IMG/VR virus record: IMGVR_UViG_3300025141_016305
Location: 96,001-160,000 of that record
Source of the DNA: a virus
Reading direction: 5' to 3' (one strand)
DNA: 64,000 nucleotides
Below the pieces are notes generated by a model that saw only the letters and a list, made by a program, of their open reading frames with translations, was not told where the DNA came from and searched no databases. The translations under genes and the position numbers were made by a program. Of this stretch, positions 21,518 through 45,932 are shown piece by piece; position 1 is the first letter of the stretch, and every line of letters begins with the position of its first letter.

Positions 21518-22489
21518 TTACATATTCTCCTTTATCTTTTTGAAATCACTCTCATACATAATTTTGGCTAATTTCTTAAATGTTACTTTTGGCTGCCAAC
21601 CCAATACTCTTTTTGCCTTTGAACTATCGCCCAACAAAAGCGGTACTTCATGTGGTCTAAATAATCTTTCATCTATTTTAACATGCTTATCTACATCTAG
21701 GCCTGCTATAGTAAAAACTTCTTCCAAAAATTCTTTAACAGTATGTGTTTCCCCAGTTGAAATAACATAATCATCAGGGTATTTTTGTTGCAACATAAGC
21801 CACATTGCTTCAACATAGTCGCCGGCGAAACCCCAGTCACGTTTTGCTTCTAGGTTGCCCAAATATAAAGTATCCTGTAGGCCTAACTTGATCCTGGCTG
21901 CAGCAAGTGTTATCTTTCTAGTCACAAATGTTTCCCCTCGTTTAGGAGATTCGTGATTAAACAAGATACCAGAAGAAGCATGCATTCCGTACCCGGTCCT
22001 ATAATTATTCACTAAATTATGAGCAAACAATTTTGCACATGCATATGGAGATGCCGGCTGGAACGCTGTCTTTTCTGATTGTGGCACTTCTGGATTATCT
22101 CCAAACATCTCAGACGATGAGGCTTGATAGAATTTGCAATTCGGCCGGAGTTCTCTTAGTGCATTTAAAATTTTTAATGTGCCCATCGCGATGCCGTCGA
22201 CCGTATTTTCAGGTATATCGAAAGATACTCTAACGTGAGATTGTGCCGCAAGATTGTAGAATTCATCTGGCTTGTATTTATTGATTAATTTCCACACAGA
22301 CCCTGCATCATTTAGATCAAAAAACTCCATATGAAACCTGGGGTGACCGAAGACATGATCTACTCTTCCAGTGTTGAAAGAGGAGCTTCTTCTTTTGAGA
22401 CCTATAACTCTATATTTTTTATTCAATAAAAATTCGGCCAGATAGGCGCCGTCTTGGCCTGTGATTCCTGTGATCAATGCTGTTTTCAT
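21518..22489 (-). CDS. gmd: GDP-mannose 4,6-dehydratase
   Basis: [66 protein letters not shown]. Confidence 0.97.
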
Positions 22490-22491
22490 CT

Positions 22492-23493
22492 TTATTCCTT
22501 ATTTAGTTCTTCATTTAAAATATCTACAATTTTATCTGCGGAATTGCCGTCACCATATGGACATGGTAAATCTATAGACCAATCTGATTTTACCTTTTCA
22601 AAGGCCCTCTTTAGTTCCTTGGGCTTGGCGCACATAAACGCAAAACTACCTATACCCTCTAACCTCTCTGTCTGTTCTCTACAAACAATGCATTTTTTTT
22701 TCAGAAACGATGTTTCTTCTTGTAATCCGCCTGAGTCTGTTATGACAAACCTTGTTGTTGCCAAAATAGATATAAATTCACTATACTCCATTGGCTCGAT
22801 AATATTAACGTCTGATAGTAGATGTTTATGTTTTTGTACATTTGGATTAGGGTGTAAGGGTATTATAAAATCTAAATGCTTGTTATTTTTTGCAATATTG
22901 TTTATTTCTTTAAACCACATGTGCATTTGTTGATGGTTTTCTCTTCTATGCATAGTTACTACAACTTTATTAGAATAAGTTGGAACTAGATCTTTCAAAT
23001 TATCTAAAACTGTATTGCCTACTACTTCAATTCTTCCCTGCGTGGATTCATCGAGAAGAAATTTTTTCGATGTCTCAGTTGGGCACAGGTGTAAATCAGC
23101 AATTCTAGAAATAGCCTGCCTATTAAACTCTTCTGGATATGGTTGTAATTTATTATAAGTTCTTAGACCTGCTTCGAGATGTACAACTTTTATCTTTCTG
23201 TGAAATGCAGCCAAGGCCACCGCAAAGGCCGAGGTAGTGTCTCCTTGTACTAGTACCGCCTTTACGCCTTTGAACACTTCGTCTTGGTTCATTATGGAAG
23301 ACACAATTGAATCAAGTCTATTTTTTCCATGAACAATAGATAATCTAATTATATCCCCTTCCTCTGCTATAATCTTTCGTAGCAAATCTTCATGTTGCCC
23401 TGTAAACAACAATTTATAAGGCAGATTAATCTTGGCCAATATTGGTTTAATTTTTATAAACTCGGGCCTAGTCCCAAAAGATACTAATATCAC
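22492..23493 (-). CDS. wecB: UDP-N-acetylglucosamine 2-epimerase (non-hydrolysing type)
   Basis: [38 protein letters not shown]. Start moved to GTG at 23493. Confidence 0.9.
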
Positions 23494-23494
23494 T

Positions 23495-23800
23495 TTATAA
23501 CTCTTCTTCAAAAAAAGTATCAGAAGTAATTGCCTTATCACATATGAATAAATCATAGATCGGCTTCTTTAAAATTAGGTCATGATACTTAACACCCCAC
23601 TTTTTAAATTGTTTTTGTGTTGTTTCTGTCCAGTCTATACCTGAACCAGTGCCGCGGGCGGTCCAATAAATAATCTGATTACCTTGGTCAAAAAGTTCGT
23701 TTATTTTTGATATGCGATTCTTCAGCGGTGTAGCTTTTGAATAATCTCTATTCGGCGGTGAGGAACAAATTGTCTCATCTATATCAACATAAATTATCAT
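23495..23800 (-). CDS. Small HAD-family phosphatase (capsule-biosynthesis phosphatase type)
   Basis: YVDIDETI, WTARG, KP.YD motifs; paralog at 54991-55347. Confidence 0.8.
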   Translation of the reverse strand: MIIYVDIDETICSSPPNRDYSKATPLKNRISKINELFDQGNQIIYWTARGTGSGIDWTETTQKQFKKWGVKYHDLILKKPIYDLFICDKAITSDTFFEEEL

Positions 23801-24621
23801 TATTTTCCTCTTAGGCTTTCTCTTTTGGAAAGCTCTGAACCCAATACTTGTCTTGGGCCGGGATTTCCAAAAGATTTTTCAATATCTCTGATTCCTTTTA
23901 CAAGCTTCATTAAGCCAATTGGTTCTACTGACGCCATCTGATCGCTGCCCCACATTGTTCTGTCTAAAGTTATGTGTCGTTCGACCCATGTGCAGCCCAT
24001 GGCGACTGCTGCAAATGTGGTAACTAAACCATATTCATGGCCGCTATAGCCTATATCTTTATTGACGTTTTTACTGGAAAGGTGATGAATATAGTTCAGG
24101 TTTAATTCTTCTATTTTTGAAGGGTAGGAAGAGTTTGTATGCATTATAACATCCGGATCGCAAACATCTACGCACAATGAAATTTCCTCCTCCGTACTCA
24201 TTCCTGTGGAAATTATCAAATTATCACAATTTTGTCTTGCGTATAAACAAAGTTCAAGATCGGTTATAAGTGCAGATGGGATTTTCATTATAGAAGTATA
24301 TTGTTTCATGAAATCAACTGATGGCTTATCCCATACAGATGCGAATAATTTTACTTTCTTAGTTTCTGCATATTTATACAAATCATCATATTGTTCTTTT
24401 TCAAATTCGATCCTATTTTTATAATCAATATATTTCATCTCGCCCCAGGGTGTAGAGCGCATTTTATCTTTCTGATGTTCTGGGACGCAAAGTTCTGGTG
24501 TTCTTTTTTGAAACTTTGCATAATCACATCCGGAAACTTCGGCCAAATCAATTAGCTTTTTTGCCAATTCAATATCGCCATTGTGGTTTATTCCAATTTC
24601 TGCTATTATTTTAACTGCCAT
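23800..24621 (-). CDS. neuB: N-acetylneuraminate synthase family protein (short; no C-terminal SAF/antifreeze domain)
   Basis: IIAEIGINHNGD, AKFQKR, ISTGMS, GYSGHE, VERHITLDR, GSDQ.AS; 273 aa. Confidence 0.9.
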   Translation of the reverse strand: MAVKIIAEIGINHNGDIELAKKLIDLAEVSGCDYAKFQKRTPELCVPEHQKDKMRSTPWGEMKYIDYKNRIEFEKEQYDDLYKYAETKKVKLFASVWDKPSVDFMKQYTSIMKIPSALITDLELCLYARQNCDNLIISTGMSTEEEISLCVDVCDPDVIMHTNSSYPSKIEELNLNYIHHLSSKNVNKDIGYSGHEYGLVTTFAAVAMGCTWVERHITLDRTMWGSDQMASVEPIGLMKLVKGIRDIEKSFGNPGPRQVLGSELSKRESLRGK

Positions 24622-25255
24622 GTTTATTCTTGAATTCCTCTAAATCACTAAGAGTATCTATATCAATAACTTTTGGTATCTTGTAATATAAAGTATCTTT
24701 ATTATACAGGTTGTTGTTTAGGTTTTTAATCTCATTTGTTTTAAATATACTAATCATATGACATATTTTAAAACATTTGGGATAATCTTGCCTCCTATAG
24801 TAATCGTGCGGGACTATTTGAGAGCCCCTATTGTTATCCTCTTCTTTTAGAAATAAATAAGGACTAACATCTATTTCTTCTCTGCACAATAAAGATAGAG
24901 CTTTATTGCACTTAAACCATTCATACGCCTTCAATACATCTTCCCATTTTCTTTCTGGGTATGTCAAATACAGCATTATTACATCTCCAGATAATTGACA
25001 ATCTTCAACAACTTCCTCGACACACTGTAATGTGGAAGCTGTGTCTTTTGCGCTTTTAGCACTACGATTGTGAATATTGCACATTGCAAAATCACTGCGT
25101 ACGCGGGCAATAATCGATGGATCATCTGTACTAACAAAGACCTTATCACGATATTGTTTTGGGATCTTATTTAGCGTGGCATCTAACAGTATTTGATTTT
25201 TTTTTGGCAGGCCTTTGGAGCCCTTTCTGGCTGGTATGATAATGTTGAAGTTCAT
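24611..25255 (-). CDS. neuA: Acylneuraminate cytidylyltransferase
   Basis: IIPARKGSKGLPKKN, VSTDD, RRQDYP, DIDT. Confidence 0.88.
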   Translation of the reverse strand: MNFNIIIPARKGSKGLPKKNQILLDATLNKIPKQYRDKVFVSTDDPSIIARVRSDFAMCNIHNRSAKSAKDTASTLQCVEEVVEDCQLSGDVIMLYLTYPERKWEDVLKAYEWFKCNKALSLLCREEIDVSPYLFLKEEDNNRGSQIVPHDYYRRQDYPKCFKICHMISIFKTNEIKNLNNNLYNKDTLYYKIPKVIDIDTLSDLEEFKNKHGS

Positions 25256-25258
25256 TTT

Positions 25259-25903
25259 TCATCTATTTGCTTTTTCATATATGGGAAACTGTGATAAGTC
25301 TTTATGAATCCCTGAAGTTTCTAGATCTTCATTGTAATCCTCTATATTTTTGAATAGCTCCAAGCCCTCTGCCGCTTGTTCCGGGGGCATATACATATTC
25401 CACCCTATCATGTCGAAAGAGTCGTCCTTGTAAAGTTTATCTATATGGCGACCTTCATATCTAGCTACCTTGAACCAGTCGTATGCTTTTTTATCGTTTG
25501 TAAGAATCATTCCACCTTTGCCAATTGGAATATGTTTTCTGCGGTGAAAAGAGAGACAATAATAAGAATCTTGCACGTACATGTCTTTTCTCATTCTGGT
25601 TGCTGCATCATAAACTGGGTATGGAGATAATTGATATTCTCCTGACCAATCTATATCTTTAAATTTTACCTGACAACCTGCGTGAATCACTGTGCACGGG
25701 ACGGATACATAGGTTCTTTTTGGGAGCGTAATTTCTCCTTCTGCTTTTAAATACTTTAAGCACAAAAACATCGCATCAGTACAATTATCAATGGCTACAG
25801 CATATTTGCTTCCCGCGTAATTTGCCATCTTCTTTTCAAAAAGATCGACCACATCCCATGGATCAGATAAATTATAATCCTTTATATACTTTTCTACTAA
25901 CAT
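25259..25903 (-). CDS. Short DegT/DnrJ-family PLP aminotransferase
   Basis: FEKKMANYAGSKYAVAIDNCTDAM, DAA, LSFHRRKHIPIGKGGMILT; start set to the ATG at 25903. Confidence 0.8.
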   Translation of the reverse strand: MLVEKYIKDYNLSDPWDVVDLFEKKMANYAGSKYAVAIDNCTDAMFLCLKYLKAEGEITLPKRTYVSVPCTVIHAGCQVKFKDIDWSGEYQLSPYPVYDAATRMRKDMYVQDSYYCLSFHRRKHIPIGKGGMILTNDKKAYDWFKVARYEGRHIDKLYKDDSFDMIGWNMYMPPEQAAEGLELFKNIEDYNEDLETSGIHKDLSQFPIYEKANR

Positions 25904-25905
25904 AA

Positions 25906-26568
25906 TTATTGCGGGTCTTCTACTCGTATTAACAAATTGCATGCATCGGCTTGATTAAAACATCGATCGATAATGCACTGCTCGTCAGTAAAGCGACCAG
26001 CAGCGTCGACGCAGTTTGCCCTAACACAATTAGCAAAGTTGATATAGGCATTCTGTGCAGCTGCACTATACCGGTCCATGCACATGCGGCTGCATTCCAC
26101 TTGTTCTTCTTCCATCATATATTGGCCACAATTTTCCTGATCAAAACAACCAACCAATTCAAGACACTCAGCTGCTACGGCGCGATCTACTCCGGTGTCG
26201 GGAAACTGACTATCACTGCCGGTGGATGGCTGATCCTCTTCTACTGCCGGAGTGAAGTCGCTCATCGGTGCGGTACCGCCTGTTGGCTCGGCGGATTCTT
26301 CTTCGGTCATAATTCCTGCCATGACGCTAGGGGAGTTTGGAGTTTCTTGGCCGGCCGAGGGAATGTATTCATTAACAGGTGGGGTTTGCGTGTTGCTTGG
26401 CGTACATCCGTACCGGCTGCCTTCGAGAGTTAATTGTTCAGTACACTCAAGCCCATCGCCACAGTCGAAATCGCCAGCATTGCAGTTGCCGCTAGGAATG
26501 TGCCTTTTTTCTTTTTCGCACCCAAAAAGAAAAATAAGTGTTGTTAATAGTATAAAAATTAATTTCAT
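25906..26568 (-). CDS. Cys-rich lipoprotein
   Basis: Signal peptide with LFGC lipobox, Pro/Glu/Thr linker, two Cys-rich domains; visibly more GC-rich than its neighbours. Confidence 0.7.
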   Translation of the reverse strand: MKLIFILLTTLIFLFGCEKEKRHIPSGNCNAGDFDCGDGLECTEQLTLEGSRYGCTPSNTQTPPVNEYIPSAGQETPNSPSVMAGIMTEEESAEPTGGTAPMSDFTPAVEEDQPSTGSDSQFPDTGVDRAVAAECLELVGCFDQENCGQYMMEEEQVECSRMCMDRYSAAAQNAYINFANCVRANCVDAAGRFTDEQCIIDRCFNQADACNLLIRVEDPQ

Positions 26569-26571
26569 TTT

Positions 26572-27228
26572 TTATCCTTTTTTTCTTGTCATCTTATCAT
26601 AATATTCGCCAACTTTAAATGATTTACCCGTGGTCGCAGTAGTGCCCGCGAAATCTTCATCATAGGCAAAACCAGGAATAACTCTAAAATCAAAACTAAC
26701 TCTTGTCGCACCTGTCTTATTGGTTTTGTTTCCGTGGCGGACTTGATTTAAATAAGCAAACAAAAATTCGCCATATTCCAACTCTATTGGCTTAAAGTCT
26801 CCTAGGCCTGGTAGGGTTTCTGACCAGATTGTATTAGTTCCGTAACATTTAGTGATGGGCAAAAAGATATTTACCTCTCCTAATGGGTGCTTATGGTTAG
26901 AATCCCCATCGCAGTGCCAAAGATAGACTGCTTTTGCCCCAGGTCTATGAAATCGAATGTTCGGATATTTTTGATATATAAGCGTATCGTCTTGAAACAA
27001 GGGAAATACAACCTTTCGAAGGAAAGAGGTATATAAGTTCTCGAATTCTGGCCAGCCATCATCAATCTTTTTATAGAAAGCTTTATGGAAAGGTGTGTGA
27101 GTATCCTCTCCTAGTGCCAAATTTTTCTTTCGATCGTGACTGTCTAAATCTTCTAGGGGCACCTCGTATAAGGCGCGTACAAGCTGGGAAAAAGGATATT
27201 TTTTTGTATCATACTTTATTATTTTCAT
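26572..27228 (-). CDS. 2OG-Fe(II) oxygenase-like protein (StrG-like)
   Basis: WHCDGD...HP.GEVN..LP.T and HGN..N.TG.TRVSFDFRV. Confidence 0.7.
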   Translation of the reverse strand: MKIIKYDTKKYPFSQLVRALYEVPLEDLDSHDRKKNLALGEDTHTPFHKAFYKKIDDGWPEFENLYTSFLRKVVFPLFQDDTLIYQKYPNIRFHRPGAKAVYLWHCDGDSNHKHPLGEVNIFLPITKCYGTNTIWSETLPGLGDFKPIELEYGEFLFAYLNQVRHGNKTNKTGATRVSFDFRVIPGFAYDEDFAGTTATTGKSFKVGEYYDKMTRKKG

Positions 27229-27243
27229 TTATACTCTCCAATT

Positions 27244-28323
27244 TTAGTAATATTGTTTAGAAAATTTAATTATTTTTTCACAAATATAATCAATTTCTAA
27301 ATTTGTTAAATCCGGAAACGATGGAAAAACTACCACTTCCTTGTTTATCAATTTTGCATTTATATCTTTTCCGGAAAAATTTAAGTGTTTATGAGCCCTG
27401 TAGGAATAAAACATTGGCCTAGTATCGATTGCCGCGGCCATAAAGAAATCTTTTGCTACATCATATCCTTTTGAACCTGGTATTTTAATTCCGAACATCC
27501 ACTTTGAATGAGTAGTATTTTCTTCTTCTATTTGCAGTTTCACGTTGGGGATGTTTTTTAAATTTTCTTTGTACCTTGAAAAAATTCTTTTTTTACTTTC
27601 GATGATACTGTTGCTATCTTCTAATTGCCCAAGAAGCAGAGCAGCTTGTATATTCGTCATTCTATAGTTGTATCCTAATTCATCATGAATAAATCTGACT
27701 TCGCTCTGCCCTTGTCCTCTTAGTTTTGAAGCGTATTCATAAATATTTTTATCATTTGTCAAAAAAGCACCACCTTCACCACAAGTTATATTTTTATTGC
27801 CGTAAAAAGATAGTGAAGAACACAGGGATTGAGTACCAGAAGAATAGCCGGCATAAGACCCAAAAAAACCCTCACAGTTGTCTTCAATAATTGGACAATT
27901 AAATTTTTGTTTCAAATCTGGGACGTTTATTATGTTTCCCAAGTTATGTACAGCAAATATCGCGCTTCCCTCTTCAACCTTGTCTATTTCCATATTCCAA
28001 GTATTTAAATTCAGATCGACACACTCAACTGCCCATTCATTATTATCATACACTAGAGAATTGTAAGCTGCAACGTAACATGCACTAGGCACTATAATCT
28101 TTTTTATATCTGGGCGTGTTTTTTTTAGCGCTCTTACCACAAGGTGTGTGGCAGCGGTACCATTATTAGTAAGGAGTGCATATTTGTAGCCTCCTACTTC
28201 TGATAGTTTTTCTGAAGCTAAATCAACATATTTGCCTGTTGAAGATACCCAGGAAGACTTTATGGCATCATTAGCATAGTGCGCGCTTTTCGCGGAGATA
28301 GATGGCTTATATACCGGAATCAT
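27244..28323 (-). CDS. DegT-family aminotransferase (perosamine-synthase-like)
   Basis: WVSSTGKYV, NGTAATHL, IEDNCE, SFYGNKNITCGEGG, GYNYRMTNIQAA. Confidence 0.9.
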   Translation of the reverse strand: MIPVYKPSISAKSAHYANDAIKSSWVSSTGKYVDLASEKLSEVGGYKYALLTNNGTAATHLVVRALKKTRPDIKKIIVPSACYVAAYNSLVYDNNEWAVECVDLNLNTWNMEIDKVEEGSAIFAVHNLGNIINVPDLKQKFNCPIIEDNCEGFFGSYAGYSSGTQSLCSSLSFYGNKNITCGEGGAFLTNDKNIYEYASKLRGQGQSEVRFIHDELGYNYRMTNIQAALLLGQLEDSNSIIESKKRIFSRYKENLKNIPNVKLQIEEENTTHSKWMFGIKIPGSKGYDVAKDFFMAAAIDTRPMFYSYRAHKHLNFSGKDINAKLINKEVVVFPSFPDLTNLEIDYICEKIIKFSKQYY

Positions 28324-28729
28324 TTTCTCTTCTCATAAAAATAGTATCTTCTGTTTCTTTAAACTTGCTGAATTCGAATGTTTCATATACATGAATTGCT
28401 CTTTCGTTGTCCCTATCCACTGACAAATATATCTCTCCAGAGTACGAATCTATAAGCTTTTTCATTATCTTTTTGCCATAACCCTTTCCATAATGACCTT
28501 CTTTCACACATATTCCAAGCCACACTTTGTCGGATGCGTGATCTAGATCTAGGTGACCATAGCCGATTGCGGCCGTATCTATCAAAAGAAAAGTGACAAT
28601 ATGGTTTTCAATCGCGGTTTCGGGTGTGCGATTAGAATAATATCTAAACTTTTTTTCAGACGAACCTATTGAATGTATAAAATTTCTCAAAGTAGAAATA
28701 TTATTCTGATCAATTTTTAAGAATTTCAT
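28307..28729 (-). CDS. GNAT acetyltransferase
   Basis: LGICVKEGHYGKGYGK motif A; N.RAI..YE. Confidence 0.85.
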   Translation of the reverse strand: MKFLKIDQNNISTLRNFIHSIGSSEKKFRYYSNRTPETAIENHIVTFLLIDTAAIGYGHLDLDHASDKVWLGICVKEGHYGKGYGKKIMKKLIDSYSGEIYLSVDRDNERAIHVYETFEFSKFKETEDTIFMRRENDSGI

Positions 28730-30508: not shown

Positions 30509-30509
30509 T

Positions 30510-31953: not shown

Positions 31954-32209
31954 TTATACTGCTCCAAATATTAGACACATAAAGACTTGGGTCTTCATCG
32001 ATTATCTCTTTCTTTACCGCTACAATTGTTGCAGCCCCGGGGCACAAACACTTTGGATGCACTATTCCTCTGGCTCCGGCATCAATAACAAAAGAAAAAA
32101 AGTTTTCAGGATACGCGTCGTGCATGTATTCTCCCACTTTTCGGTGATTGTATTTTTGAATTTTTGGAAATGCCCACGATACACTTTTTTCACTAAGGTC
32201 TATTCTCAT
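31946..32209 (-). CDS. Hypothetical protein, possibly a chimeric gene remnant
   Basis: 87-aa ORF overlapping both neighbours; VIDAGA resembles a SAM-binding motif I but the protein is too short for a full fold. Confidence 0.4.
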   Translation of the reverse strand: MRIDLSEKSVSWAFPKIQKYNHRKVGEYMHDAYPENFFSFVIDAGARGIVHPKCLCPGAATIVAVKKEIIDEDPSLYVSNIWSSING

Positions 32210-33911: not shown

Positions 33912-33913
33912 CT

Positions 33914-37746: not shown

Positions 37747-39130
37747 ATATTTTCTTTTCTATTTCATATTCTAAATCTTTTACGGGTCGTTCGGGCTGTT
37801 CATCTGCCCAATCGGCCATTTTTTCTATAACATTTCTTAAGTTTGTCTCATCGACAAAACTTAAATGCTTTTTGGCTTTGTCGTGATCACAATAAGCCAC
37901 ATGCACCTCTTCTCTTTTTGCCATATAAACCTTCTTAGGTTCGTGGCCGCGGGACTTCATAATTTCGATTAAAAGATCAGCGGCATCGTCGATCGTACAA
38001 TATTCATCTGAACCAATATTGTATGTTTGCCCGTTTGTTCTTTCATCTTTTATCAATTTTTCTAAAGGCTCCATACAAAAATTAATATCTGAAAATGCTC
38101 GGATTTGGCTTCCATCTCCAAACACTGTTATTGGTTCATTATTTAATACCTGTCTAATCCATATCCCTATAACATTTCTATACCTATCCCATATATTTTG
38201 ATATAACCCAACCACATTGTGAGGCCTAATAATAGAATAGTCTAACCCAAACATCTTATTGGCAATTGCCAAATCCATTTCAACAGCATATTTGGCTACG
38301 CCGTATGGATCATCTGGGTTTGGTATTTGACCCTCTTTGAAGGGCGGTTCTCCAAAACCATACACTGCCATGGAACTAGTGAATACTAGTTTTTTTACAC
38401 TATTATTAATACACGCATTAATGATGTTTGCAGAACACAACACATTGCTTGTATAATTATAGTTTCTTACAAACCTACTTAAGCCCTCGGATGCATATGC
38501 AGCAAAGTGATAAACAAAGTCAGGCCTTTCGCGAGCAAAGATCTCTTCTGTTAGTTTTCTATCTTCTAAATCTGTCTGGTAAAACTTTACACCCTCCGGA
38601 ACACTGGAGTGATACCCTCCACTCAGATTGTCTATCCCCACAACATCATAACCATTCTCTAATAAGTGTCTTGAAAAGTTTGCTCCAAAGAGACCCGCAA
38701 CACCAGTTATCAGTACTTTCAATCTTTCATCCTCATTTGTCTTTATTTTATTTAGTTCTGCTTTAAAATCATCATAGTCTCGAATATAGTCTTCTTTATC
38801 ATACTCTTCAGAACACAAACACAAGACAGTGGTGTTTTTCTTTTTTAAATTTAACACGGCCCATTCTAAGTTTTCATGTAAAAAACTTTGGCCCGGGTCT
38901 AGATTTATAAAATTTTTCCCCTCTTTATTTTCGACGGATATTTCAACTTGCCCAGAAAGGCACACCAATACCTGTTTGCATTTAAGGTGAGCATGCTTGC
39001 CTCTAACACAATTAGATTTTGAACCAGAAGTTATATAAAAAATTCTTTTTACTTCGAAAGGGGTGTGACTAAAGTCAAAAACACCCAGCATAGATTCATC
39101 TACGCGTTTGAAGATCTTTAAAATATCCAT
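37718..39130 (-). CDS. Fusion of FdtA/QdtA-type sugar 3,4-ketoisomerase cupin and NAD-dependent epimerase/dehydratase
   Basis: N-terminal PFEVKRIFYI, RGKHAH, YD..DYIRDY; C-terminal VLITGVAGLFG, TSSMAVYG, YGVAK. Confidence 0.88.
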   Translation of the reverse strand: MDILKIFKRVDESMLGVFDFSHTPFEVKRIFYITSGSKSNCVRGKHAHLKCKQVLVCLSGQVEISVENKEGKNFINLDPGQSFLHENLEWAVLNLKKKNTTVLCLCSEEYDKEDYIRDYDDFKAELNKIKTNEDERLKVLITGVAGLFGANFSRHLLENGYDVVGIDNLSGGYHSSVPEGVKFYQTDLEDRKLTEEIFARERPDFVYHFAAYASEGLSRFVRNYNYTSNVLCSANIINACINNSVKKLVFTSSMAVYGFGEPPFKEGQIPNPDDPYGVAKYAVEMDLAIANKMFGLDYSIIRPHNVVGLYQNIWDRYRNVIGIWIRQVLNNEPITVFGDGSQIRAFSDINFCMEPLEKLIKDERTNGQTYNIGSDEYCTIDDAADLLIEIMKSRGHEPKKVYMAKREEVHVAYCDHDKAKKHLSFVDETNLRNVIEKMADWADEQPERPVKDLEYEIEKKIYDYWATKTK

Positions 39131-40037
39131 GAGTTTTAACTAGTTTTATTACTCTCCCTAATTCTTTTTCTGTTAAGTTCTCGTGAAAAGGAATCGAAAT
39201 AGTTGTTTTCGATTCCTTTTCACTTTTCGGTAAAACCTTTTTTGCTTTGCAGTATATAGGTTTGTTGTGTAACGATTCATAATGAATTCCAATCTCTATT
39301 TGTTCTTTTTTCGCTTTTCTAATAAAGGTGTGTCTATCATTCACATTCAATCGATATAGGTGAAAACTATCATTATTGAGGCCGAACTCTGAATTGTATC
39401 TTTCTCTTATCTCTTCTAGCGATTGATATTTTTGCTTTAATTTATCAAAATTTTTATTTGCAATATACGCTTGAATTGCATTTAGATACATTTTAAATCC
39501 TGGCTTTATTATCTTTCTTTTCCAGCTTTTTTCGTCAAATATGCAACCATTCATAACCATCATTTTAAAAAAATCAATCTTCTCTTTATCGTTACTAACA
39601 ATTATACCGCCATCAAAACTTCCAATTGGCTTTGTCGGGTAAAAACTAAATATCATTAAATCTTGAGGCTCCGCTTCAATTAAAAACTGATTTTTTGTAA
39701 TTTTTTGTGCAGAATCTATTATCTTATATGCGCCGAAATCATGAAGAATATACGAGCCCCCAACCCACTCAATATCATCTCTAAAAGATATGTTATTCCC
39801 AGAAGTTTTTATGGCATTACAAACAACCGGAGGTAATATCGACGGGACTTCGACAGTTACATCTTTATTTAGCAATGCCATGAAAATGGCGTTTGTAGCA
39901 CTATTAAACCCACACGCATATTTAGCTCCGGTGAATTCAGCTATTCTTTTCTCGAACTTATCAACTATGTCGTCGTGCAGACCGGTCAATTTAGAAGTAT
40001 CGATTGTGTAATTGTTTATGTTAAAAAGATTAATCAT
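39096..40037 (-). CDS. DegT-family aminotransferase
   Basis: NSATNA, DSAQ, FSFYPTKPIGSFDGG, GIHY, TISIPFH. Confidence 0.85.
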   Translation of the reverse strand: MINLFNINNYTIDTSKLTGLHDDIVDKFEKRIAEFTGAKYACGFNSATNAIFMALLNKDVTVEVPSILPPVVCNAIKTSGNNISFRDDIEWVGGSYILHDFGAYKIIDSAQKITKNQFLIEAEPQDLMIFSFYPTKPIGSFDGGIIVSNDKEKIDFFKMMVMNGCIFDEKSWKRKIIKPGFKMYLNAIQAYIANKNFDKLKQKYQSLEEIRERYNSEFGLNNDSFHLYRLNVNDRHTFIRKAKKEQIEIGIHYESLHNKPIYCKAKKVLPKSEKESKTTISIPFHENLTEKELGRVIKLVKTHGYFKDLQTRR

Positions 40038-40044
40038 ATATGTT

Positions 40045-40884
40045 TTATAACTGAAAAGACTCAGTTATTGCCTTTGGATGAAGCCCTATGAATTTTCTAG
40101 TTCGACATGGGCCGCGGTGTTCTGGTTTCCATTCGTGCACTCCATGGTATTTATTTTCTAAGAGGTATCTCTCGACCCTTCCGCCATTTACCCATGGAAC
40201 AAAAACCTTTTCGTAATAATCAGGAATACATTTAAACCTGCTAACTTTTGCTTCATAATACTCTGCCTTGTTTTTGACTTGTCTATCAAAGACGTAGGAA
40301 TAATGATACATCATTACGCCTGTCATATTATAAAATGAATCACTATTAATGTGTTTAAGATCATGTTTCGATGAATACTTCATTGTCGGAGGGCGATGTG
40401 TCAGCCAAGTACAGCCTTTTTCATATTTAAAAATTCTTATAAAATTATCAACATTTTGTTCAAACCCAGTAAGATAATCCTCAAAACCACCATAAAAAGT
40501 ACAACTTTGAACCCCAACGCTAGTTGGTTGATGTTCTTTTAAAAAATTTATTGTTTTTAATATATCTTCCGTTTTATATACTTCGTCGCTATCAACCATC
40601 CAAAGATAGTCTGTATCTTCCTTCAAAAGAGACATATACGCATTACACTGATCGTCTTTTTCGTCATATTGGCCATGGACGACAAAAATTTTATTATCAG
40701 GATCAGGGAAACTATCTAATATTTCATTAGTTTTGTCTGAAGATGTGTTTCTTCCTTTACTTTGCCAAAACTTTACCGGACCTTCGGCAATAACTATTTG
40801 ATGCGCATGAGGGTATATTTGTTCTAAACACTCTTTTAGAACATAGTCTCCTTCAAATACAATCATTCCAAATGATATTTTCAT
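40045..40884 (-). CDS. GT2-like glycosyltransferase
   Basis: S.DKT, VDSDEVY, YHYSYV. Confidence 0.7.
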   Translation of the reverse strand: MKISFGMIVFEGDYVLKECLEQIYPHAHQIVIAEGPVKFWQSKGRNTSSDKTNEILDSFPDPDNKIFVVHGQYDEKDDQCNAYMSLLKEDTDYLWMVDSDEVYKTEDILKTINFLKEHQPTSVGVQSCTFYGGFEDYLTGFEQNVDNFIRIFKYEKGCTWLTHRPPTMKYSSKHDLKHINSDSFYNMTGVMMYHYSYVFDRQVKNKAEYYEAKVSRFKCIPDYYEKVFVPWVNGGRVERYLLENKYHGVHEWKPEHRGPCRTRKFIGLHPKAITESFQL

Positions 40885-41764
40885 TCAAACTCTCCATATC
40901 TTTAAAATATTGCTCGTATAAAGAAAAAACAAATTTATTATTTTTAAGATTTAATATACCATGGCGTGGGGCTGGAATATAGGTTTTATTTTTCAAATCT
41001 TCCTTGAAGTTTGAAAAATGATAAAATAGTAGTTTCTGCAACTTTCCGTTCCATAATATTTTATCGGCTATATATTGATGGTGATGTATGTTCCATGGTG
41101 CTAGGTGTCCAAGATAATCATCAATTTTAAATACACTATTGTAGAGTTTTGGAAACAGCTCTAAATATTTTTGATCCCCGCAAGTACCATAAGCGCTAGC
41201 GTACTCGTTATCGTCATGAAGCAAACAGTCTTTCCAAAAGGCCGCGCATGATTGACCATCTTTGTCGTTTTTAAAATACACTATTCCTACATTGTACAAC
41301 CCATTGACTGGGTTATAGGGTACCCTGTTCTCTATAAGACCTATTGACCCGAAATCTTTTAAATCTAAAATCCTTGTTGGATCTTCAAAGAAATAAATAT
41401 CCGCATCAACATAGACAATATCGTCTATGTTGCAATGTTTCAAACAATACCAAGAATAATAAGAAGCTAAAGACCATATGAATTGCAGCTTTTTTGCACC
41501 TTTCTCGTTTCCTCCGCAGAGGTTTAAAGATTCGAAAGATGGCTTATTGTTTTGTGATTTTTTTAATTCTTTGTCTGAATTTAAGAGGTCTTTTATATTA
41601 TGACAATTTACTTCTTTACAATTATTGTTAATTAATTTAAAAATATCGTCATCTAAGCACAGTAAATTAATCGTATACTCTGAGGTATGATTTCTTATAC
41701 TTTCTCTTAATGCTAAGAACTTTATGGCAAATTTGCTGTCAGCCAATGTACAAATGCTGATCAT
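40853..41764 (-). CDS. GT8-like nucleotide-diphospho-sugar transferase
   Basis: YVDADIYFF, YNVGIVYF, GDQKYL, APWN, FYHFS. Confidence 0.75.
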   Translation of the reverse strand: MISICTLADSKFAIKFLALRESIRNHTSEYTINLLCLDDDIFKLINNNCKEVNCHNIKDLLNSDKELKKSQNNKPSFESLNLCGGNEKGAKKLQFIWSLASYYSWYCLKHCNIDDIVYVDADIYFFEDPTRILDLKDFGSIGLIENRVPYNPVNGLYNVGIVYFKNDKDGQSCAAFWKDCLLHDDNEYASAYGTCGDQKYLELFPKLYNSVFKIDDYLGHLAPWNIHHHQYIADKILWNGKLQKLLFYHFSNFKEDLKNKTYIPAPRHGILNLKNNKFVFSLYEQYFKDMESLNENIIWNDCI

Positions 41765-43830
41765 GTACTAGGTTTTTGTGCTCTTGCGAGATAAGAAGCT
41801 TGATGTTTTTTAAACACTTCTCTTTCTTCTCGACTCTTCCAAACTGCGTTGTCCGTATCTGTTGATACACCTTTCGGGTTAAAATAATATAGACCTAAAG
41901 GTTTATAATATTTTTTAAATTTTGAACCATTTAGCGCGCAGCGTAACCAGAAATCCCAATCTGCTGCTGACTTATATTTATCATCAAAAAAGCCATTTTT
42001 ATCGTGAATAGTCTTGCGCCACATCGGCATACAGTGGGGCGCGTTGCCTCTTAGCATTGACTCTATAGAAAAATCTTCTGCCGGATATATTTGTCCTTGT
42101 GATGAGTTTTCTTCAAAAGTCTCATTTTCATGAAAAGTCAAAAGATTTTCAGAGTAAACTAGATCGGCATCTTCGTTCGTAGATAAGAAAAACCCTAATT
42201 GCTCCATAAAATCTATTGCATGCCTATCATCCAAGTTGGCATTCGTGATAAATTTACCAGAAGCCATTTCAACAGCCATGTTCCAGACACCATAAATACC
42301 GGGGTCGTGATCTAATCTTTTATAAATAATGTTGTCCGGATGGGAGTTTGCATATTCTAAGATTGTAGGCTCTTCGTTGCCGGGGGAGTTCGCATTTATT
42401 AGTATTAATTCACACTTTTCTCTAAAGATTGTTTGTCGTGTTATATCTTCCAAAAAGGGCTTTATAAAATTGTCCGCATCATATACAGATGTAATAATGG
42501 ATATTTTCGGTATCTTTGATCTATCGACCTTTTTTATCTGAGAGTCGACTCTGTCGAATAGACTCTTTTTTTTGCTTCTGGTCTGGTCATTTACAGTTAA
42601 ATATTCAATAGTTTGATCTCCGAGAATCGCGCTACTCATTTGTTTTAATATTTTCTGCTTTTCGTGAGAAATAGAGATGTCTTTTTTTAGTGTTTTTGCC
42701 CAACTTTTATAGAGGCTATAATTACTTTTAACATTTCTGATTTGTTTTCTAAAAGACAATTCATTTGGATACGCCCACTTGCTGCCTTCAACTAAGATAT
42801 TTTCCCACTCCGCGGACTTTTGAATCGCTTTTAATTCATATTCAACTCTTGCAAAAAGTTTTTTATCTTTTAATTTTTTAGTTTTCTTTTGTTTTACTTT
42901 TGTAGTTAAAAAATCCAAATGAGCTGACCAGTCTGTTGCCACGACGGGCATGCCAGAATACGCTGCTTCAAACAAAGGAAGACCATAACCCTCGCCATGA
43001 GTAGTGGAGACTACTGCTTTAATCTTTGGATTGTTATATAATCCATGTATTTTCTCTTCTGAGAGGGATCCATGAAGTAGATAAATTTTACACTTCTTTT
43101 CTCCGAAACCACTAATAAGTGTTTTTAAATATTTCTTAGTTGCTGCTCGATCTATTTTATTACCAGCAACAAAGCCCGTCTTCAAAATTAAACCTACGTC
43201 CGCATCATTTCTAAACTCTTTAATAAACCACTCAATTGTTTGGTTTAAGTTCTTTCTAGGACCGAAGAGTGCGAGGGTTAAAAAATTAAACTCTGTTTCT
43301 AAATCTAAATCGATTTGTTCCGGAACTATATCTTTTACTGGGTAAGGTACAACTTCGACTGGACATTGACACTCTAGTATAGTGACCTCATCTTGTTTTG
43401 AATGGTTCGTAATTTCATACTTAGTTTTAACAAATCCGTCTTTTGCGTGTTGAGATGGTACAATTAACTTGTTAATCCCTTTTGTTTTTTCAAGCCAGGT
43501 ATGAGAAACTCTATCTGTTTCAATCCCAGCTGTAACACAAATTGAATAATTTGCTCTTTTTGTAAATTCAAAAGGGATTCCCACGTGCACCTGCATATCA
43601 AAGACTGGTTGTGCGTCATGAGCCTGGCACTGTGTCATGTATCTCTGAAACTTTTCAATATTGTCGTTTATTGTTTGATCTCTGGGTGGTGACCATGCGG
43701 TGTTTCCCCACGGGAGTGGGACTATATACATGTCTAGGCCTCTTATTTGTTTCAAAGATTCATACACCAACCGTGCATGCTCACCATACCCAGATTGAGT
43801 CAATATTGGTGCTTCTAATAATACTCTCAT
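41761..43830 (-). CDS. GT4-GT2 fusion glycosyltransferase
   Basis: SGYGEH, THGEGYGLPLFEAA (GT-B), then ISIITSVY, NANLDD, ADWDFWLR (GT-A). Confidence 0.88.
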   Translation of the reverse strand: MRVLLEAPILTQSGYGEHARLVYESLKQIRGLDMYIVPLPWGNTAWSPPRDQTINDNIEKFQRYMTQCQAHDAQPVFDMQVHVGIPFEFTKRANYSICVTAGIETDRVSHTWLEKTKGINKLIVPSQHAKDGFVKTKYEITNHSKQDEVTILECQCPVEVVPYPVKDIVPEQIDLDLETEFNFLTLALFGPRKNLNQTIEWFIKEFRNDADVGLILKTGFVAGNKIDRAATKKYLKTLISGFGEKKCKIYLLHGSLSEEKIHGLYNNPKIKAVVSTTHGEGYGLPLFEAAYSGMPVVATDWSAHLDFLTTKVKQKKTKKLKDKKLFARVEYELKAIQKSAEWENILVEGSKWAYPNELSFRKQIRNVKSNYSLYKSWAKTLKKDISISHEKQKILKQMSSAILGDQTIEYLTVNDQTRSKKKSLFDRVDSQIKKVDRSKIPKISIITSVYDADNFIKPFLEDITRQTIFREKCELILINANSPGNEEPTILEYANSHPDNIIYKRLDHDPGIYGVWNMAVEMASGKFITNANLDDRHAIDFMEQLGFFLSTNEDADLVYSENLLTFHENETFEENSSQGQIYPAEDFSIESMLRGNAPHCMPMWRKTIHDKNGFFDDKYKSAADWDFWLRCALNGSKFKKYYKPLGLYYFNPKGVSTDTDNAVWKSREEREVFKKHQASYLARAQKPST

Positions 43831-45092
43831 AAGTCCTTAATCAATTCCCAACTTTGATAGTTTTTTCTATTTTCCCATGAGCCCAGATTTTGTGTTACAT
43901 ACTCAAAAAGTTCGCGCCAATTACTTTCGTACTGCTCAAAACCATAATTCGTTAAAACATGATTTCTTCCAGATTTACCCATCTTTAATCGTTCCTCTTT
44001 TGGAGTATTATAAAAATCCTCTAGTGCTTTTAAAAAGTCCCCTCTTGAAATACGGTCTTCGTAAATATAAGGTACATCTTGAGAGCCGATAACAGCTTTA
44101 GAGGAAGGCTCTATACCAATCCCAAACCAATTACCTTGACCATCAGTCACCTGTTCCTGCAGGCCGCCTGTCATATTTACAATTACTGGAGTTTCACATG
44201 CAAGAGACTCTAAAGTAGAGAGACCGAAACCTTCAGCATCTGATATGTTTATTGTGCAATCCACAAAGGAATAAATTTTTGCTAATTCTTCCGGGGGCAT
44301 TTTCTGTGTTGAAAACATTATTTGATCTGATTTTAGGCCTAGGCGTTCTGCGATTACTTCCAAATCTTGACCATTTGGATCCTTTGGTTCCGTGTGCATT
44401 ATTAGCGCAGCTTTGTCGTGCCCCACTTTATCTAAAAAATCTTTAAACCAAAATATTAAAGTTCCGGATTGCTTTCTTCTTGCATTTCTATTGTTCCAGA
44501 AAAACACCATTTTATTGCTTAAGCTATTTAATTTTTCATTTAAAGTACCCAATTTAGAAGTAGGCAGGGCTTTGAATATTTCAGTATTAACAGTGTGTGG
44601 AATTCTTACACATTTAACGTCCGGGCTGACTTTTCTGACGATTTGATCAGTTACATCACTAATTGTGCAAATAACATCATTTGAATCATAGAAACTTTTA
44701 TTATAATATGGATATGGAAAATTATCCCAAACATGATAATAAACCATGGGGACATTCTTTCTTATTTCATCTTCCAGTTGCCACAACCAAATAAAAAATC
44801 TTGGATCTGTCATAAACCACAAAACGTCTGGCTTAAATTGGTGAAGAACTTGCCTGACAATAGTTGCGTTGCCATACCCATCAACTGGATGGATTATTAG
44901 ATCCTCTCCGTATGGTTCCACCTTAATAGGCCGATAATCATTGTGTTTTAGGGCGCCAGCTAGGCATAGAAACTTATATTCACCCGTCTTTAGTAAAGCC
45001 TCAATCATGTATTTTGTTTGAGTTCCAACCCCGGAAGGTACTAGTGGGCTATCAGCAATAACGAAGATCTTTTTTTTAGGTTTTGTGGTCAT
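43827..45092 (-). CDS. GT4-family glycosyltransferase
   Basis: NRNARRK, SDAEGFGLSTLESLAC.TP; ATG at 45092 overlaps the TGA of the duplicated nuclease end. Confidence 0.9.
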   Translation of the reverse strand: MTTKPKKKIFVIADSPLVPSGVGTQTKYMIEALLKTGEYKFLCLAGALKHNDYRPIKVEPYGEDLIIHPVDGYGNATIVRQVLHQFKPDVLWFMTDPRFFIWLWQLEDEIRKNVPMVYYHVWDNFPYPYYNKSFYDSNDVICTISDVTDQIVRKVSPDVKCVRIPHTVNTEIFKALPTSKLGTLNEKLNSLSNKMVFFWNNRNARRKQSGTLIFWFKDFLDKVGHDKAALIMHTEPKDPNGQDLEVIAERLGLKSDQIMFSTQKMPPEELAKIYSFVDCTINISDAEGFGLSTLESLACETPVIVNMTGGLQEQVTDGQGNWFGIGIEPSSKAVIGSQDVPYIYEDRISRGDFLKALEDFYNTPKEERLKMGKSGRNHVLTNYGFEQYESNWRELFEYVTQNLGSWENRKNYQSWELIKDL

Positions 45093-45104
45093 ATGCAATG
45101 TTTA

Positions 45105-45213
45105 GTTTTATAAAATTTACAATATTTACAAGAAAGTCTATTTTTAATAAAGTTTTTTCTTTCTATATTTATAGCAGCTTTCTCTAACATTTTTAAAGAA
45201 TTTTGTGTTTTTT
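45105..45213. repeat. Direct repeat copy A: duplicated 3' end of the PD-(D/E)XK nuclease gene
   Basis: 106/109 nt identical to 45945-46053 (offset 840 bp). Confidence 0.95.
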
Positions 45214-45248
45214 CTTTGTTTATAGCTTCATTTACTTTCTCGCTCTTG

Positions 45249-45932
45249 CTATGGAAATTTTACATATATCCAATCGATTGGACAATCCGAATACGGGCGG
45301 TGGTTGCGAAGATCAAAATACTTTCTTAAAACAGTATCATGCTCTGACATCTTCTTGCCTAGCTCTTTAGTGTTCTCGATGGTGCCGAGATTGTCATGAT
45401 AATCTAAATAAAGCTGACGTATTGTTATATTATCAAGAACTTTAGATTCGAACATATGATCCAAAACATCAAATTCTGCTCCTTCGATGTTCATAACAAT
45501 ATAAAGTTCAAACTTATCTTTTGGAAAGTTTTTTAAAATTTCTACAAAATCAACGGCTTCAACATTGTATGATTGAACATATTTCCCCGATCGTTTGCCT
45601 CTGTGTGTCGAGTTTGAACCTTTCCCAAAATCATGAAATTCTACAGTCCCATCAGCATTCCACACTGCCGCATTATATAGACGCGTCTTTGCGCGTGTGT
45701 TAGGTTCTAGATAAGACAACTCTTTTTCTATATCAAAATCTTTTAAAGCTTCAAATCCCAGGATTTGATCGAAAAAATCACCAAGTTGTTCTGGTTTTGT
45801 CGGCAGACCATTTGGACGATTGAGGGTACATTCGTGGCGACCCCATGGGGCGATGTGATGAAAATATGAGGCGCCTTTGGTATACCACCCGCAAATGATT
45901 AATACTTTTTTTCTTTTTGTTTTCAAAATCAC
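45249..45932 (-). CDS. FkbM-like methyltransferase inserted between the direct repeats
   Basis: GFEA, NAAVW..DG, VEAVDF, MNIEGAEFDVL; GTG start overlaps the nuclease TGA. Confidence 0.65.
   Translation of the reverse strand: MILKTKRKKVLIICGWYTKGASYFHHIAPWGRHECTLNRPNGLPTKPEQLGDFFDQILGFEALKDFDIEKELSYLEPNTRAKTRLYNAAVWNADGTVEFHDFGKGSNSTHRGKRSGKYVQSYNVEAVDFVEILKNFPKDKFELYIVMNIEGAEFDVLDHMFESKVLDNITIRQLYLDYHDNLGTIENTKELGKKMSEHDTVLRKYFDLRNHRPYSDCPIDWIYVKFP

Follow-up and report, generated by a model that had tools for sequence, protein, structure and literature searches.

Island and its genomic slot

We analysed a stretch of 64,000 nucleotides (the window) from the virus record IMGVR_UViG_3300025141_016305, corresponding to bases 96,001-160,000 of a 175,011-bp linear viral contig that is rated 96% complete. 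Positions 21518-45932 of the window, 14.0% of the genome, are taken up by a glycosylation island of 29 consecutive open reading frames (ORFs) on the minus strand. All junctions are overlaps or gaps of at most 15 nt, apart from a single 150-nt gap at 45099-45248; ORF starts were placed at the first possible start codon, so that the overlaps are possibly overstated. Fourteen of the genes belong to sugar-nucleotide synthesis and decoration, 11 are glycosyltransferase (GT)-like and contain 12 GT domains, and four have no family assignment. The sugar enzymes are a GDP-mannose 4,6-dehydratase (Gmd), a UDP-N-acetylglucosamine (UDP-GlcNAc) 2-epimerase, a HAD phosphatase, a NeuB-family synthase, a CMP-sugar synthetase-like protein, three DegT-family proteins, a GNAT acetyltransferase, two 2-oxoglutarate (2OG)-Fe(II) oxygenases, an FdtA-SDR fusion and two methyltransferases. 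Among the GT genes there are three stand-alone GT2 (a further GT2 domain is fused to the second of two GT4), the two GT4, one GT8, one GT17, a marginal GT-D, a marginal GT29 and two members of phrog_2644, one of them also GT11-like. Nine of the 11 exceed their Pfam cut-off and the other two were assigned through phrog_2644 only. Pfam scans of the genome ORFs found no GT gene elsewhere in the genome.

An earlier note on this DNA, made from the sequence, had placed the island at the same coordinates, which were borne out. It had counted about 29 sugar genes and about 11 GT genes besides; the tight coupling of the two groups holds, but the total is 29 with the GT genes included. It had further described the island as co-oriented with, and upstream of, late sigma and baseplate genes. 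This position is correct, and gp25/gp6-like baseplate genes do lie downstream of the island, but the sigma label is weak and the shared orientation is uninformative, as 160 of the 165 ORFs of at least 60 aa in the whole genome are on the minus strand. A firm identity of the downstream anchor as late sigma factor was tried and rejected, since its family profile finds no solved relative.

To survey the locus, the window genes were compared by tblastn with 160 related loci, 80 per anchor, each with 10 kb of flank. The relatives were taken from IMG/VR, where the downstream anchor occurs in at least 593 viral stretches and the upstream nuclease anchor in 215. The features are listed below from the upstream to the downstream anchor.

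45929..46702, minus: PD-(D/E)XK nuclease, upstream anchor (PF12705, E=2e-18; phrog_69 exonuclease; 215 related viral stretches)
45249..45932, minus: FkbM-type methyltransferase, an insertion specific to this phage (PF05050, 28.6 bits; TIGR01444, 38.6 bits; 0/160 loci)
45099..45248, minus: the only sizeable intergenic gap, 150 nt, containing TATAAATA at 45166-45173 on the minus strand
43827..45098, minus: conserved GT4 number 1, candidate initiating transferase (PF00534, 48.6 bits; 77/80 nuclease-anchored loci, median identity 59%)
41761..43830, minus: conserved GT4 number 2 with a fused C-terminal GT2 domain (PF00534 at residues 181-306, PF00535 at 444-605; 69/80 loci)
40853..41764, minus: GT8-like glycosyltransferase (PF01501, 29.4 bits, cut-off 24.3; 0/160 loci)
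40045..40884, minus: GT2 glycosyltransferase (PF00535, 30.9 bits, cut-off 23.3; 0/160 loci)
39096..40037, minus: DegT/PseC-like aminotransferase, matching in its C-terminal part (PF01041, E=3e-33; TIGR03588, 95 bits, below cut-off)
37718..39130, minus: FdtA-like 3,4-ketoisomerase fused to an SDR epimerase/dehydratase (PF05523, 93 bits; PF01370, 162 bits)
36799..37746, minus: marginal GT-D-fold-like protein (PF22882, 28 bits, cut-off 27, over the C-terminal 48 residues only; 0/160 loci)
36038..36871, minus: GT2 glycosyltransferase (PF00535, 31.8 bits; 3/160 loci)
35322..36071, minus: GT11-like glycosyltransferase (phrog_2644, E=3e-12; PF01531, 22.8 bits, just under the cut-off of 23.9)
34684..35337, minus: S-adenosylmethionine methyltransferase (PF08241, 32.6 bits)
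33914..34687, minus: GT17-like glycosyltransferase (PF04724, 55.3 bits, cut-off 26; 0/160 loci)
33282..33911, minus: marginal GT29 (sialyltransferase)-like protein (PF00777, 24 bits, cut-off 23, E=3e-5, no stretch passing alone; 0/160 loci)
32206..33285, minus: weakly GH32-N-like protein (PF00251, 20.2 bits, below the cut-off of 22.1)
31946..32209, minus: 87-aa ORF (no Pfam, PHROG or NCBIfam family)
31150..31953, minus: GT2-like glycosyltransferase (PF13704, 37.2 bits, cut-off 27.5)
30510..31169, minus: PhyH-type 2OG-Fe(II) oxygenase (PF05721, 36.7 bits; phrog_61)
29675..30508, minus: glycosyltransferase by PHROG only (phrog_2644, E=3e-9; no Pfam match)
28710..29690, minus: protein resembling viral DUF6492 clusters (ESM Atlas feature scores 0.97-0.99, where the 0.99 match is named DUF6492 automatically only and is maybe the protein's own cluster, and PF20102 is found on 21-26% of the members of the 0.97 matches; no Pfam, PHROG or NCBIfam match)
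28307..28729, minus: GNAT N-acetyltransferase (PF00583, 44.3 bits)
27244..28323, minus: LegC/PseC-family sugar aminotransferase (PF01041, 211 bits; TIGR04181, 211 bits, below the cut-off of 420)
26572..27228, minus: 2OG-Fe(II) oxygenase of the "sporadic carbohydrate cluster" type (TIGR04324, E=1e-8, below cut-off)
25906..26568, minus: 220-aa ORF (no Pfam, PHROG or NCBIfam family; 0/160 loci)
25259..25942, minus: short DegT-like protein, N-terminal half only (PF01041, 84.6 bits)
24611..25255, minus: CMP-sugar (nonulosonic acid) synthetase-like protein (PF02348, 41.3 bits, cut-off 22.6; TIGR03584 PseF, 53 bits, below cut-off)
23800..24621, minus: NeuB-family nonulosonic acid synthase without SAF domain (PF03102, 205 bits; TIGR03569, 200 bits, and TIGR03586, 155 bits, both below the equivalog cut-offs)
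23495..23800, minus: miniature HAD phosphatase, 101 aa (phrog_1238, E=5e-27; 30/80 sigma-anchored loci)
22492..23556, minus: non-hydrolysing UDP-GlcNAc 2-epimerase (TIGR00236 wecB, 237.7 bits, cut-off 210; NeuC model 66.8 bits, below 235.9)
21518..22489, minus: Gmd (TIGR01472, 462.5 bits, cut-off 415; 43/80 sigma-anchored loci, part of which may be cross-matches to other SDR enzymes)
20055..20750, minus: downstream anchor, gp55-like late sigma, a weak label (phrog_234, E=7e-6; at least 593 related viral stretches)

The island occupies a fixed slot between the nuclease gene and the weakly gp55-like gene, and this slot is kept in well over 200 viral contigs. Its start is conserved, with GT4 number 1 found in 77 and GT4 number 2 in 69 of the 80 nuclease-anchored loci; at the other end Gmd and the miniature HAD phosphatase recur in 43 and 30 of 80 loci. 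Sixteen genes in the middle have no homolog in the 160 related loci. From anchor to anchor the distance is 25.2 kb here, compared with 9.9-18.6 kb in the 10 relatives that hold both anchors. In the related loci, 1,542 co-oriented island-side ORFs fall into 448 clusters. Among the 148 most widespread cluster representatives, Pfam identified GT1, GT2, GT7, GT9, GT10, GT11, GT15, GT29, FUT8-like and RXYLT1-like transferases, and moreover NeuB with a SAF domain, CMP- and nucleoside diphosphate (NDP)-sugar enzymes, formyl-, carbamoyl-, sulfo- and C-methyltransferases, APS kinase and radical SAM enzymes. Judged by this gene content, the cargo downstream of the conserved start is exchanged freely between relatives. 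The short DegT-like protein is probably not a broken gene, because a similar short form is a recurrent cluster among the relatives.

We also considered that the island might be derived from a host or be chimeric, which would have undermined the earlier note. This does not hold: phage genes flank the island, the slot is conserved and the composition is only mildly shifted (GC content 0.361 compared with 0.392 for the rest; codon-use cosine 0.979, where controls average 0.994 and do not fall below 0.986). Such a composition is what an accessory island would show, rather than a chimera or a piece of host DNA.

By its genes the uncultured marine phage is a T4-like myovirus. It encodes the T4-type hallmarks portal, Gp23 capsid protein, prohead protease, gp25/gp6-like baseplate wedge proteins and sheath, together with PolIII-alpha, GroEL/GroES, ribosomal protein S21, ThyX, PhoH and dUTPase. 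No deposited phage matches the genome in a nucleotide-level search. By portal protein the nearest cultured phages are Flavobacterium phage immuto (42%), Microcystis phage Mel-JY01 (39%) and Rhodothermus phage RM378 (33%), and portal identity to any deposited phage does not exceed 42%.

Export machinery and predicted sugar chemistry

The earlier note had recognised no Wzx, Wzy, ABC transporter or priming transferase in the island, and this absence extends to the whole genome and to 19 related genomes, 11 of which are at least 90% complete. Pfam scans covered 164 of the 165 genome ORFs of at least 60 aa and two overlapping ORFs, leaving out a 101-aa plus-strand ORF nested in a GT2 gene. They found no Wzx, Wzy, Wzz, Wza, ABC exporter, ABC-2 permease (PF01061), WecA/WbaP-type primer, GtrA or oligosaccharyltransferase. 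Six-frame family searches, for which the positive controls gave matches in 4 to 14 of 14 reference genomes, likewise returned no match in this genome for Wzx (PF01943), Wzy_C (PF04932), Glycos_transf_4, Bac_transf or STT3. For polyprenyl-phosphate priming (WecA/MraY, PF00953; WbaP/PglC, PF02397) the counts were zero in the genome and in the 19 relatives, with controls found in 12 and 10 of the 14 references. For oligosaccharyltransferases, STT3 was absent from the genome (control 4/14, all archaea), as was Wzy_C, the family of the PglL-type O-oligosaccharyltransferases. ABC_tran (PF00005) gave only two P-loop matches below the cut-off, in the SbcC-like and PhoH genes. In the relatives Wzx, Wzy_C, Bac_transf, Glycos_transf_4 and ABC2_membrane (PF01061) were each found in 0 of 19 genomes, and Pfam detected no export or priming family among the 148 pan-island representatives. 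Export or polymerase genes elsewhere on the contig would have contradicted the earlier note; none were found in this 96%-complete genome.

Predicted membrane topology gives a similar picture. In a hydrophobicity scan, which was a simple Kyte-Doolittle window without a calibrated positive control, island ORFs have at most one hydrophobic segment each, the genome-wide maximum is four segments in a 116-aa ORF, and none of the 1,542 island-side ORFs of the 160 related loci reaches four. No island ORF resembles a member of a gtrABC-type seroconversion cassette (GtrA, GtrB, polytopic Gtr) by hydrophobicity or Pfam. These results support the view that the phage encodes no lipid-linked export route and that its enzymes are all predicted to be soluble. 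For both reasons, action of the enzymes at the cytoplasmic side, and thus cytoplasmic assembly of the glycan, is supported as well.

The island enzymes are predicted to convert host GDP-mannose, UDP-GlcNAc, phosphoenolpyruvate and CTP into activated unusual sugars. Predicted products are a GDP-4-keto-6-deoxyhexose derivative, a CMP-nonulosonic acid and aminated, N-acetylated, methylated or hydroxylated variants. The core of the nonulosonic-acid pathway is present, with the NeuB-family synthase (PF03102, 205 bits) and the cytidylyltransferase (PF02348, 41 bits) both above the Pfam cut-offs. As the models score below the NCBIfam equivalog cut-offs and the synthase has no SAF domain, a sialic, legionaminic, pseudaminic or Kdn type is not assignable. 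A candidate for a nonulosonic-acid transferase is the GT29 match, which is marginal at 24 bits against a cut-off of 23.

Further sugar-related genes lie outside the island and bring their number in the whole genome to about 35:

54109..58680, minus: second, separate sugar-acid cluster (HAD phosphatase, 2-hydroxyacid dehydrogenase, HpcH aldolase, CTP_transf_3 cytidylyltransferase, GAPDH-like enzyme and an unassigned 289-aa ORF)
51284..51649, minus: stand-alone cupin resembling the C-terminal domain of mannose-6-phosphate isomerase (PF01050, 94.7 bits)

The cupin possibly feeds GDP-mannose or heptose chemistry. Next to it, a tRNA with anticodon CAT (51672-51748) adjoins a PP-loop ATPase of the TilS-type family (51770-52372; PF01171, 119 bits), so that the phage may possess a tRNA-Ile2 of its own as well as the lysidine synthase by which this tRNA would be recoded. 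The phage also encodes a transfer-messenger RNA (tmRNA; 53680-53989) with the tag peptide ANDDIEIFEDFALAA. A 226-aa protein (47141-47821) is kept in 78 of 80 related loci; its match to ATLF (lethal-factor N/C domain) is below the cut-off, at 20.1 bits against 27.4.

The conserved GT4 pair and the acceptor of the glycan

The two GT4 enzymes at the start of the slot are the constant part of the island. Among the 80 relatives that match both genes, 71 have the beginning of the GT4 number 1 match at under 50 nt from that of the nuclease; in this phage the FkbM methyltransferase gene is inserted between them. GT4 number 2 is mostly a stand-alone form in the relatives (median 430 aa). The E-x7-E motif is invariant in both enzymes, as E289-x7-E297 among 36 sequences of number 1 and E280-x7-E288 among 34 sequences of number 2, and both look catalytically intact. 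A GtfA/GtfB-type initiation pair, in which one partner is non-catalytic, was therefore rejected; Gtf1 chains match only at E=0.003-0.005.

Searched as a profile of 36 sequences, GT4 number 1 has its best solved relative in 3oy2, the B736L protein of chlorovirus NY-2A (E=1.9e-13). The same structure was the best match in a fold search with an AlphaFold (AF2) model of pLDDT 89.6 (E=2.8e-20, TM 0.72/0.76), at an identity of only about 19%. Giant eukaryotic viruses had been named as the analogy in the earlier note, which thereby gains some basis. In a Foldseek comparison with viral models, phage, giant-virus and archaeal-virus GT4s were mixed, and the comparison is not discriminating.

Homologs of GT4 number 1 with 26-33% identity occur in immuto, Mel-JY01, RM378 and one 484-kb uncultured phage. 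Flavobacterium phage immuto and Microcystis phage Mel-JY01 keep the order nuclease, GT4, GT and variable sugar genes. RM378 has the GT4 homolog with an adjacent unannotated 425-aa gene among replication genes, and no sugar-synthesis gene is annotated nearby. A more distant homolog (21.6% identity) is found in Pontimonas phage phiPsal1, where a methyltransferase and a GT2 accompany it between the genes for capsid and neck. In cellular data we found the GT4 on 11 contigs of metagenome-assembled genomes (MAGs) at 50-68% identity, labelled Woesearchaeota (3), Pelagibacter (2), Flavobacteriales, WOR-3, Maricaulis, Neomarinimicrobiota and others; one of them, in a Pelagibacter MAG, is 116 kb long. 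Most likely these contigs are mis-binned phage DNA; they offer no cellular context and point to no reliable host.

The island is best explained as a two-tiered machinery of the phage for making a glycan. Two conserved GT4s of retaining type would attach the same two-sugar core to an acceptor that all these phages have in common. Most likely this acceptor is one or several of the phage's virion proteins, glycosylated in the cytoplasm while the particles are being assembled or earlier. The variable cargo would then extend this core into a lineage-specific outer glycan, which in this phage may be unusually large and include a sialic-acid-like sugar. We favour a virion protein of the phage itself as acceptor, at somewhat less than an even chance, for several reasons. 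The core is kept in phages whose hosts span phyla with different envelopes, and this conservation (in RM378, of the GT4 homolog only) argues against a host-specific acceptor. The nearest solved relative of the GT4 comes from a virus group that glycosylates its own capsid, and the distant homolog in phiPsal1 sits inside a structural operon. Moreover, three large structural proteins contain an excess of S/T-G-S tripeptides, with 9, 18 and 8 occurrences against 1.4, 4.5 and 1.6 expected, although this is a small-number statistic. Just downstream of the island and baseplate genes lie two giant ORFs of 3,606 aa (window 6802-17622) and 3,357 aa (genome 88461-98534), the latter with a ConA-like Laminin_G_3 domain and an S/T-G-S excess; both are candidates for fibre proteins and for glycan acceptors.

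Several observations weigh against a virion acceptor, beginning with the size of the tripeptide sample and the uncalibrated hydrophobicity scan mentioned above. Neither the capsid protein nor the other structural proteins have Ser/Thr-rich C-terminal tails or mucin-like tracts (Ser+Thr fraction at most 0.5 per 30-residue window, and 0.07 at the capsid C-terminus), and Ser/Thr-rich virion tails of the mycobacteriophage style were therefore rejected. The conserved pair is linked to PhoH and the nuclease here and to polymerase, ribonucleotide reductase and clamp loader genes in Mel-JY01 and RM378, not to structural genes. After B736L, the next-best folds for GT4 number 1 are MshA, sucrose-phosphate synthase and BshA, whose acceptors are small soluble molecules. 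B736L itself binds GDP-mannose, and its own acceptor is given as not known (PMC9614988).

The signals for transcription weigh on the same side. The T4 late promoter TATAAATA occurs 12 times in the window against 8.5 expected; it is not enriched and was rejected as a working late signal here. By contrast with this T4 signal, CTATTTA[TA] is matched 24 times on the coding strand of the whole genome and 6 times on the opposite one (for example at genome positions 7763, 13948, 43155, 59238 and 79094). Fifteen of the 24 precede a start by at most 120 nt, in most cases that of a structural gene, and the motif is a candidate late promoter. No such site and no sigma-70-like promoter lies inside the island. 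TTGACA-N-TATAAT promoters are seen upstream of some other genes. In one relative (L118, 6901-6996) a sigma-70-type promoter, TTGACA ... TATATT, is located in the 95-nt gap directly before the conserved GT4 and hints at early transcription by the host polymerase. Together these positions hint at early or middle expression of the island.

The main alternative, to which we assign a substantial but lesser probability of around one third, is that the phage remodels the host envelope. On the inner side of the membrane, an oligosaccharide would be built on a host lipid, either lipid A-core or an undecaprenyl-diphosphate (Und-PP)-linked sugar primed by the host's WecA/WbaP, and the host's MsbA, Wzx, WaaL or ABC transporter would bring it to the outside. 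The altered surface of the infected cell might, for instance, prevent superinfection or keep progeny from adhering to debris. In lipooligosaccharide (LOS)-type glycans, soluble or peripheral GTs build on lipid A-core and the host MsbA flips the product, so that neither Wzx nor Wzy is needed; a phage-made Und-PP-linked unit could equally use the host's WecA, Wzx and WaaL. Because such host-lipid routes use the host's own export, a lack of export genes does not establish phage substrates. The earlier note had concluded from this lack that the glycans are built in the cytoplasm directly on phage substrates; the cytoplasmic assembly is supported, the step to the substrates does not follow. The combination of NeuB, CMP-synthetase, sialyltransferase-like protein and GT2/4/8/11 resembles bacterial LOS and O-antigen loci, and the relatives contain parts typical of lipopolysaccharide (LPS), such as a GT9 heptosyltransferase-like gene and genes for a heptose-type kinase and nucleotidyltransferase. 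The hints of early or middle expression suit this explanation, and the hypervariability of the island could track hypervariable host surface loci. It is also the standard reading of similar cyanomyovirus clusters such as that of S-SCSM2R (PMC12801897). Against it stands that the GT pair is found in phages of Bacteroidota and Cyanobacteria, and the GT4 in RM378, whose hosts differ in their envelope glycolipids, and that none of the 1,542 related island ORFs is polytopic. Furthermore, 12 GT domains with full precursor pathways look like the de novo synthesis of a whole glycan, which normally needs a cognate Wzy or a tolerant exporter. Seroconverting phages change the surface with one to three genes, usually for membrane proteins.

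Two further acceptors have been considered. Glycosylation of the bases of the phage DNA against host restriction, in the T-even style, by the conserved pair and perhaps more GTs would agree with the linkage of the pair to nuclease, PhoH and replication genes in the clade members seen, with a sub-dominant match of GT4 number 1 to "GT4-conflict" (PF20706, 27 bits, cut-off 26), with the two 2OG-Fe(II) oxygenases of the island and with the description of phage GTs that decorate DNA with diverse glycans (Pyle et al. 2024, as cited in PMC12619734). However, the ThyA-family dCMP/dUMP hydroxymethylase (PF00303) is absent from the genome (control 10/14) and from all 19 relatives, and a C5 DNA methylase (PF00145) is absent from the ORF scans of this genome and present in one of the 19 relatives (L190, G017:C1:88592-89548; 283 bits, full). 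Both results disfavour a DNA acceptor, which the earlier note had left possible. ORF-level Pfam scans found neither a T4 alpha- or beta-GT family nor Tet_JBP, for which the six-frame control was silent. ThyX and dUTPase are encoded, consistent with ordinary thymidine, and the oxygenases are not conserved (3/160 loci each). We know of no DNA modification that uses 12 GT domains or a nonulosonic acid, and we regard a DNA acceptor as very unlikely. Hardly more probable, though still only unlikely, are host proteins (flagellin, pilin, S-layer), a small molecule or a free oligosaccharide as acceptor, by which the infected cell would be rewired. The MshA, sucrose-phosphate synthase and BshA folds are in line with this, as are weak MptE/Maf matches below the cut-off in cluster representatives of 4 relatives. 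A Maf-type nonulosonic-acid protein transferase was nevertheless rejected: the matches to PF01973 stay below the cut-off, two family profiles match no solved Maf structure, and the best link to this phage is a blastp hit to the GT29-like ORF at E=0.022. Host proteins also differ among the host phyla that share the core GT pair, and 12 GT domains are excessive for a small-molecule glycoside.

Taken further, the virion-protein reading would mean that an abundant, uncultured T4-like lineage of the ocean wears strain-specific glycan coats, with a GT4-primed two-sugar core on a virion protein, a cargo of up to about 25 kb that diversifies the outer glycan and defines phage serotypes, and a core ancestral to the phages of Bacteroidota, Cyanobacteria and Rhodothermus. 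We consider this wider proposal tentative, possible rather than probable. If it is true, these serotypes would be analogous to bacterial O-antigens, but on virus particles, and the outer glycans would resemble sialic acid, with sulfated, carbamoylated, formylated or methylated forms possible in relatives.

Significance and comparison with known systems

Sugar genes of marine phages are routinely annotated as "LPS" or as auxiliary and host-directed. If the virion is decorated, very common ocean phages would have variable glycan coats, which would affect adsorption, host range, aggregation, decay, grazing and recognition by host defences, and rare sugars, nonulosonic acids among them, would have an unrecognised reservoir in phage particles. 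If instead the host surface is remodelled, the island would rank with the most elaborate examples of envelope rewriting by a lytic phage. In both cases the system is defined by its fixed slot, its conserved GT pair and its swappable cargo, and its core is common to the cultured phages immuto, Mel-JY01 and RM378 (in RM378, the GT4 homolog). In a limited library, searches on virion glycosylation, phage nonulosonic acid, immuto, Mel-JY01 and glycosylated tail fibres returned no paper on this module.

The sialylated LOS loci of Campylobacter and Neisseria combine NeuB, CMP-synthetase, sialyltransferase and soluble GTs without Wzx or Wzy, and their products are built on lipid A-core and flipped by MsbA. 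These loci are cellular and have a known lipid acceptor, whereas the island belongs to a lytic phage and its first two GTs are common to phages of unrelated hosts. The virion-glycosylation systems of mycobacteriophages consist of few genes, compared with 29 genes here. Mycobacteriophage GTs are reported to O-glycosylate the phage's own capsid and tail-tube proteins without export machinery (Freeman et al. 2023, as summarised in PMC12619734). Their glycans are on C-terminal tails, which were not seen here, and the genes of the island lie outside the structural operon, although phiPsal1 has its distant GT4 homolog among structural genes.

T-even DNA glucosylation and the GTs of Pyle et al. 2024 (as cited in PMC12619734) are alike in that phage GT genes stand beside genes of DNA metabolism. 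The base-modifying hydroxymethylase, TET/JBP or C5-methylase of the T-even and TET-type systems was not found in this phage. To our knowledge, no DNA-glycosylation system has as many GTs and sugar pathways.

Chloroviruses glycosylate their own capsid autonomously (PMC9614988). Like mimiviruses, they combine viral nucleotide-sugar pathways with soluble cytoplasmic GTs, and a conserved core with variable decoration (PMC9614988, PMC7826918). In gene content the island agrees with such autonomous viral glycosylation: it has soluble GTs and its own nucleotide-sugar pathways, and the virus encodes no lipid-linked export. The giant viruses differ in having eukaryotic hosts and chemically characterised glycans on capsid or fibril proteins.

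Close in setting are the clusters of the cyanomyoviruses S-SCSM2R, S-SCSM1 and P-SSM2, likewise large marine T4-like phages with many soluble GTs, NDP-sugar epimerases and Kdo-type genes (PMC12801897). In the same paper, S-SCSM2R is reported to have 22 genes for "cell wall synthesis and modification" and 13 GTs, the latter maybe the highest number in a marine phage, and these are read as modifying the host surface or DNA; S-SCSM2R also has the export protein PgaA, which has no counterpart in this phage. The lineage studied here is distinct, as seen from its portal identity and the lack of a nucleotide match to deposited phages, and its island differs from those clusters in the documented fixed slot, the conserved GT4 pair, the swapped cargo and the NeuB/CMP-synthetase branch. 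What appears to be new is thus the combination of a fixed slot, a conserved GT4 pair, hypervariable cargo and a nonulosonic-acid branch in a different and very abundant uncultured lineage.

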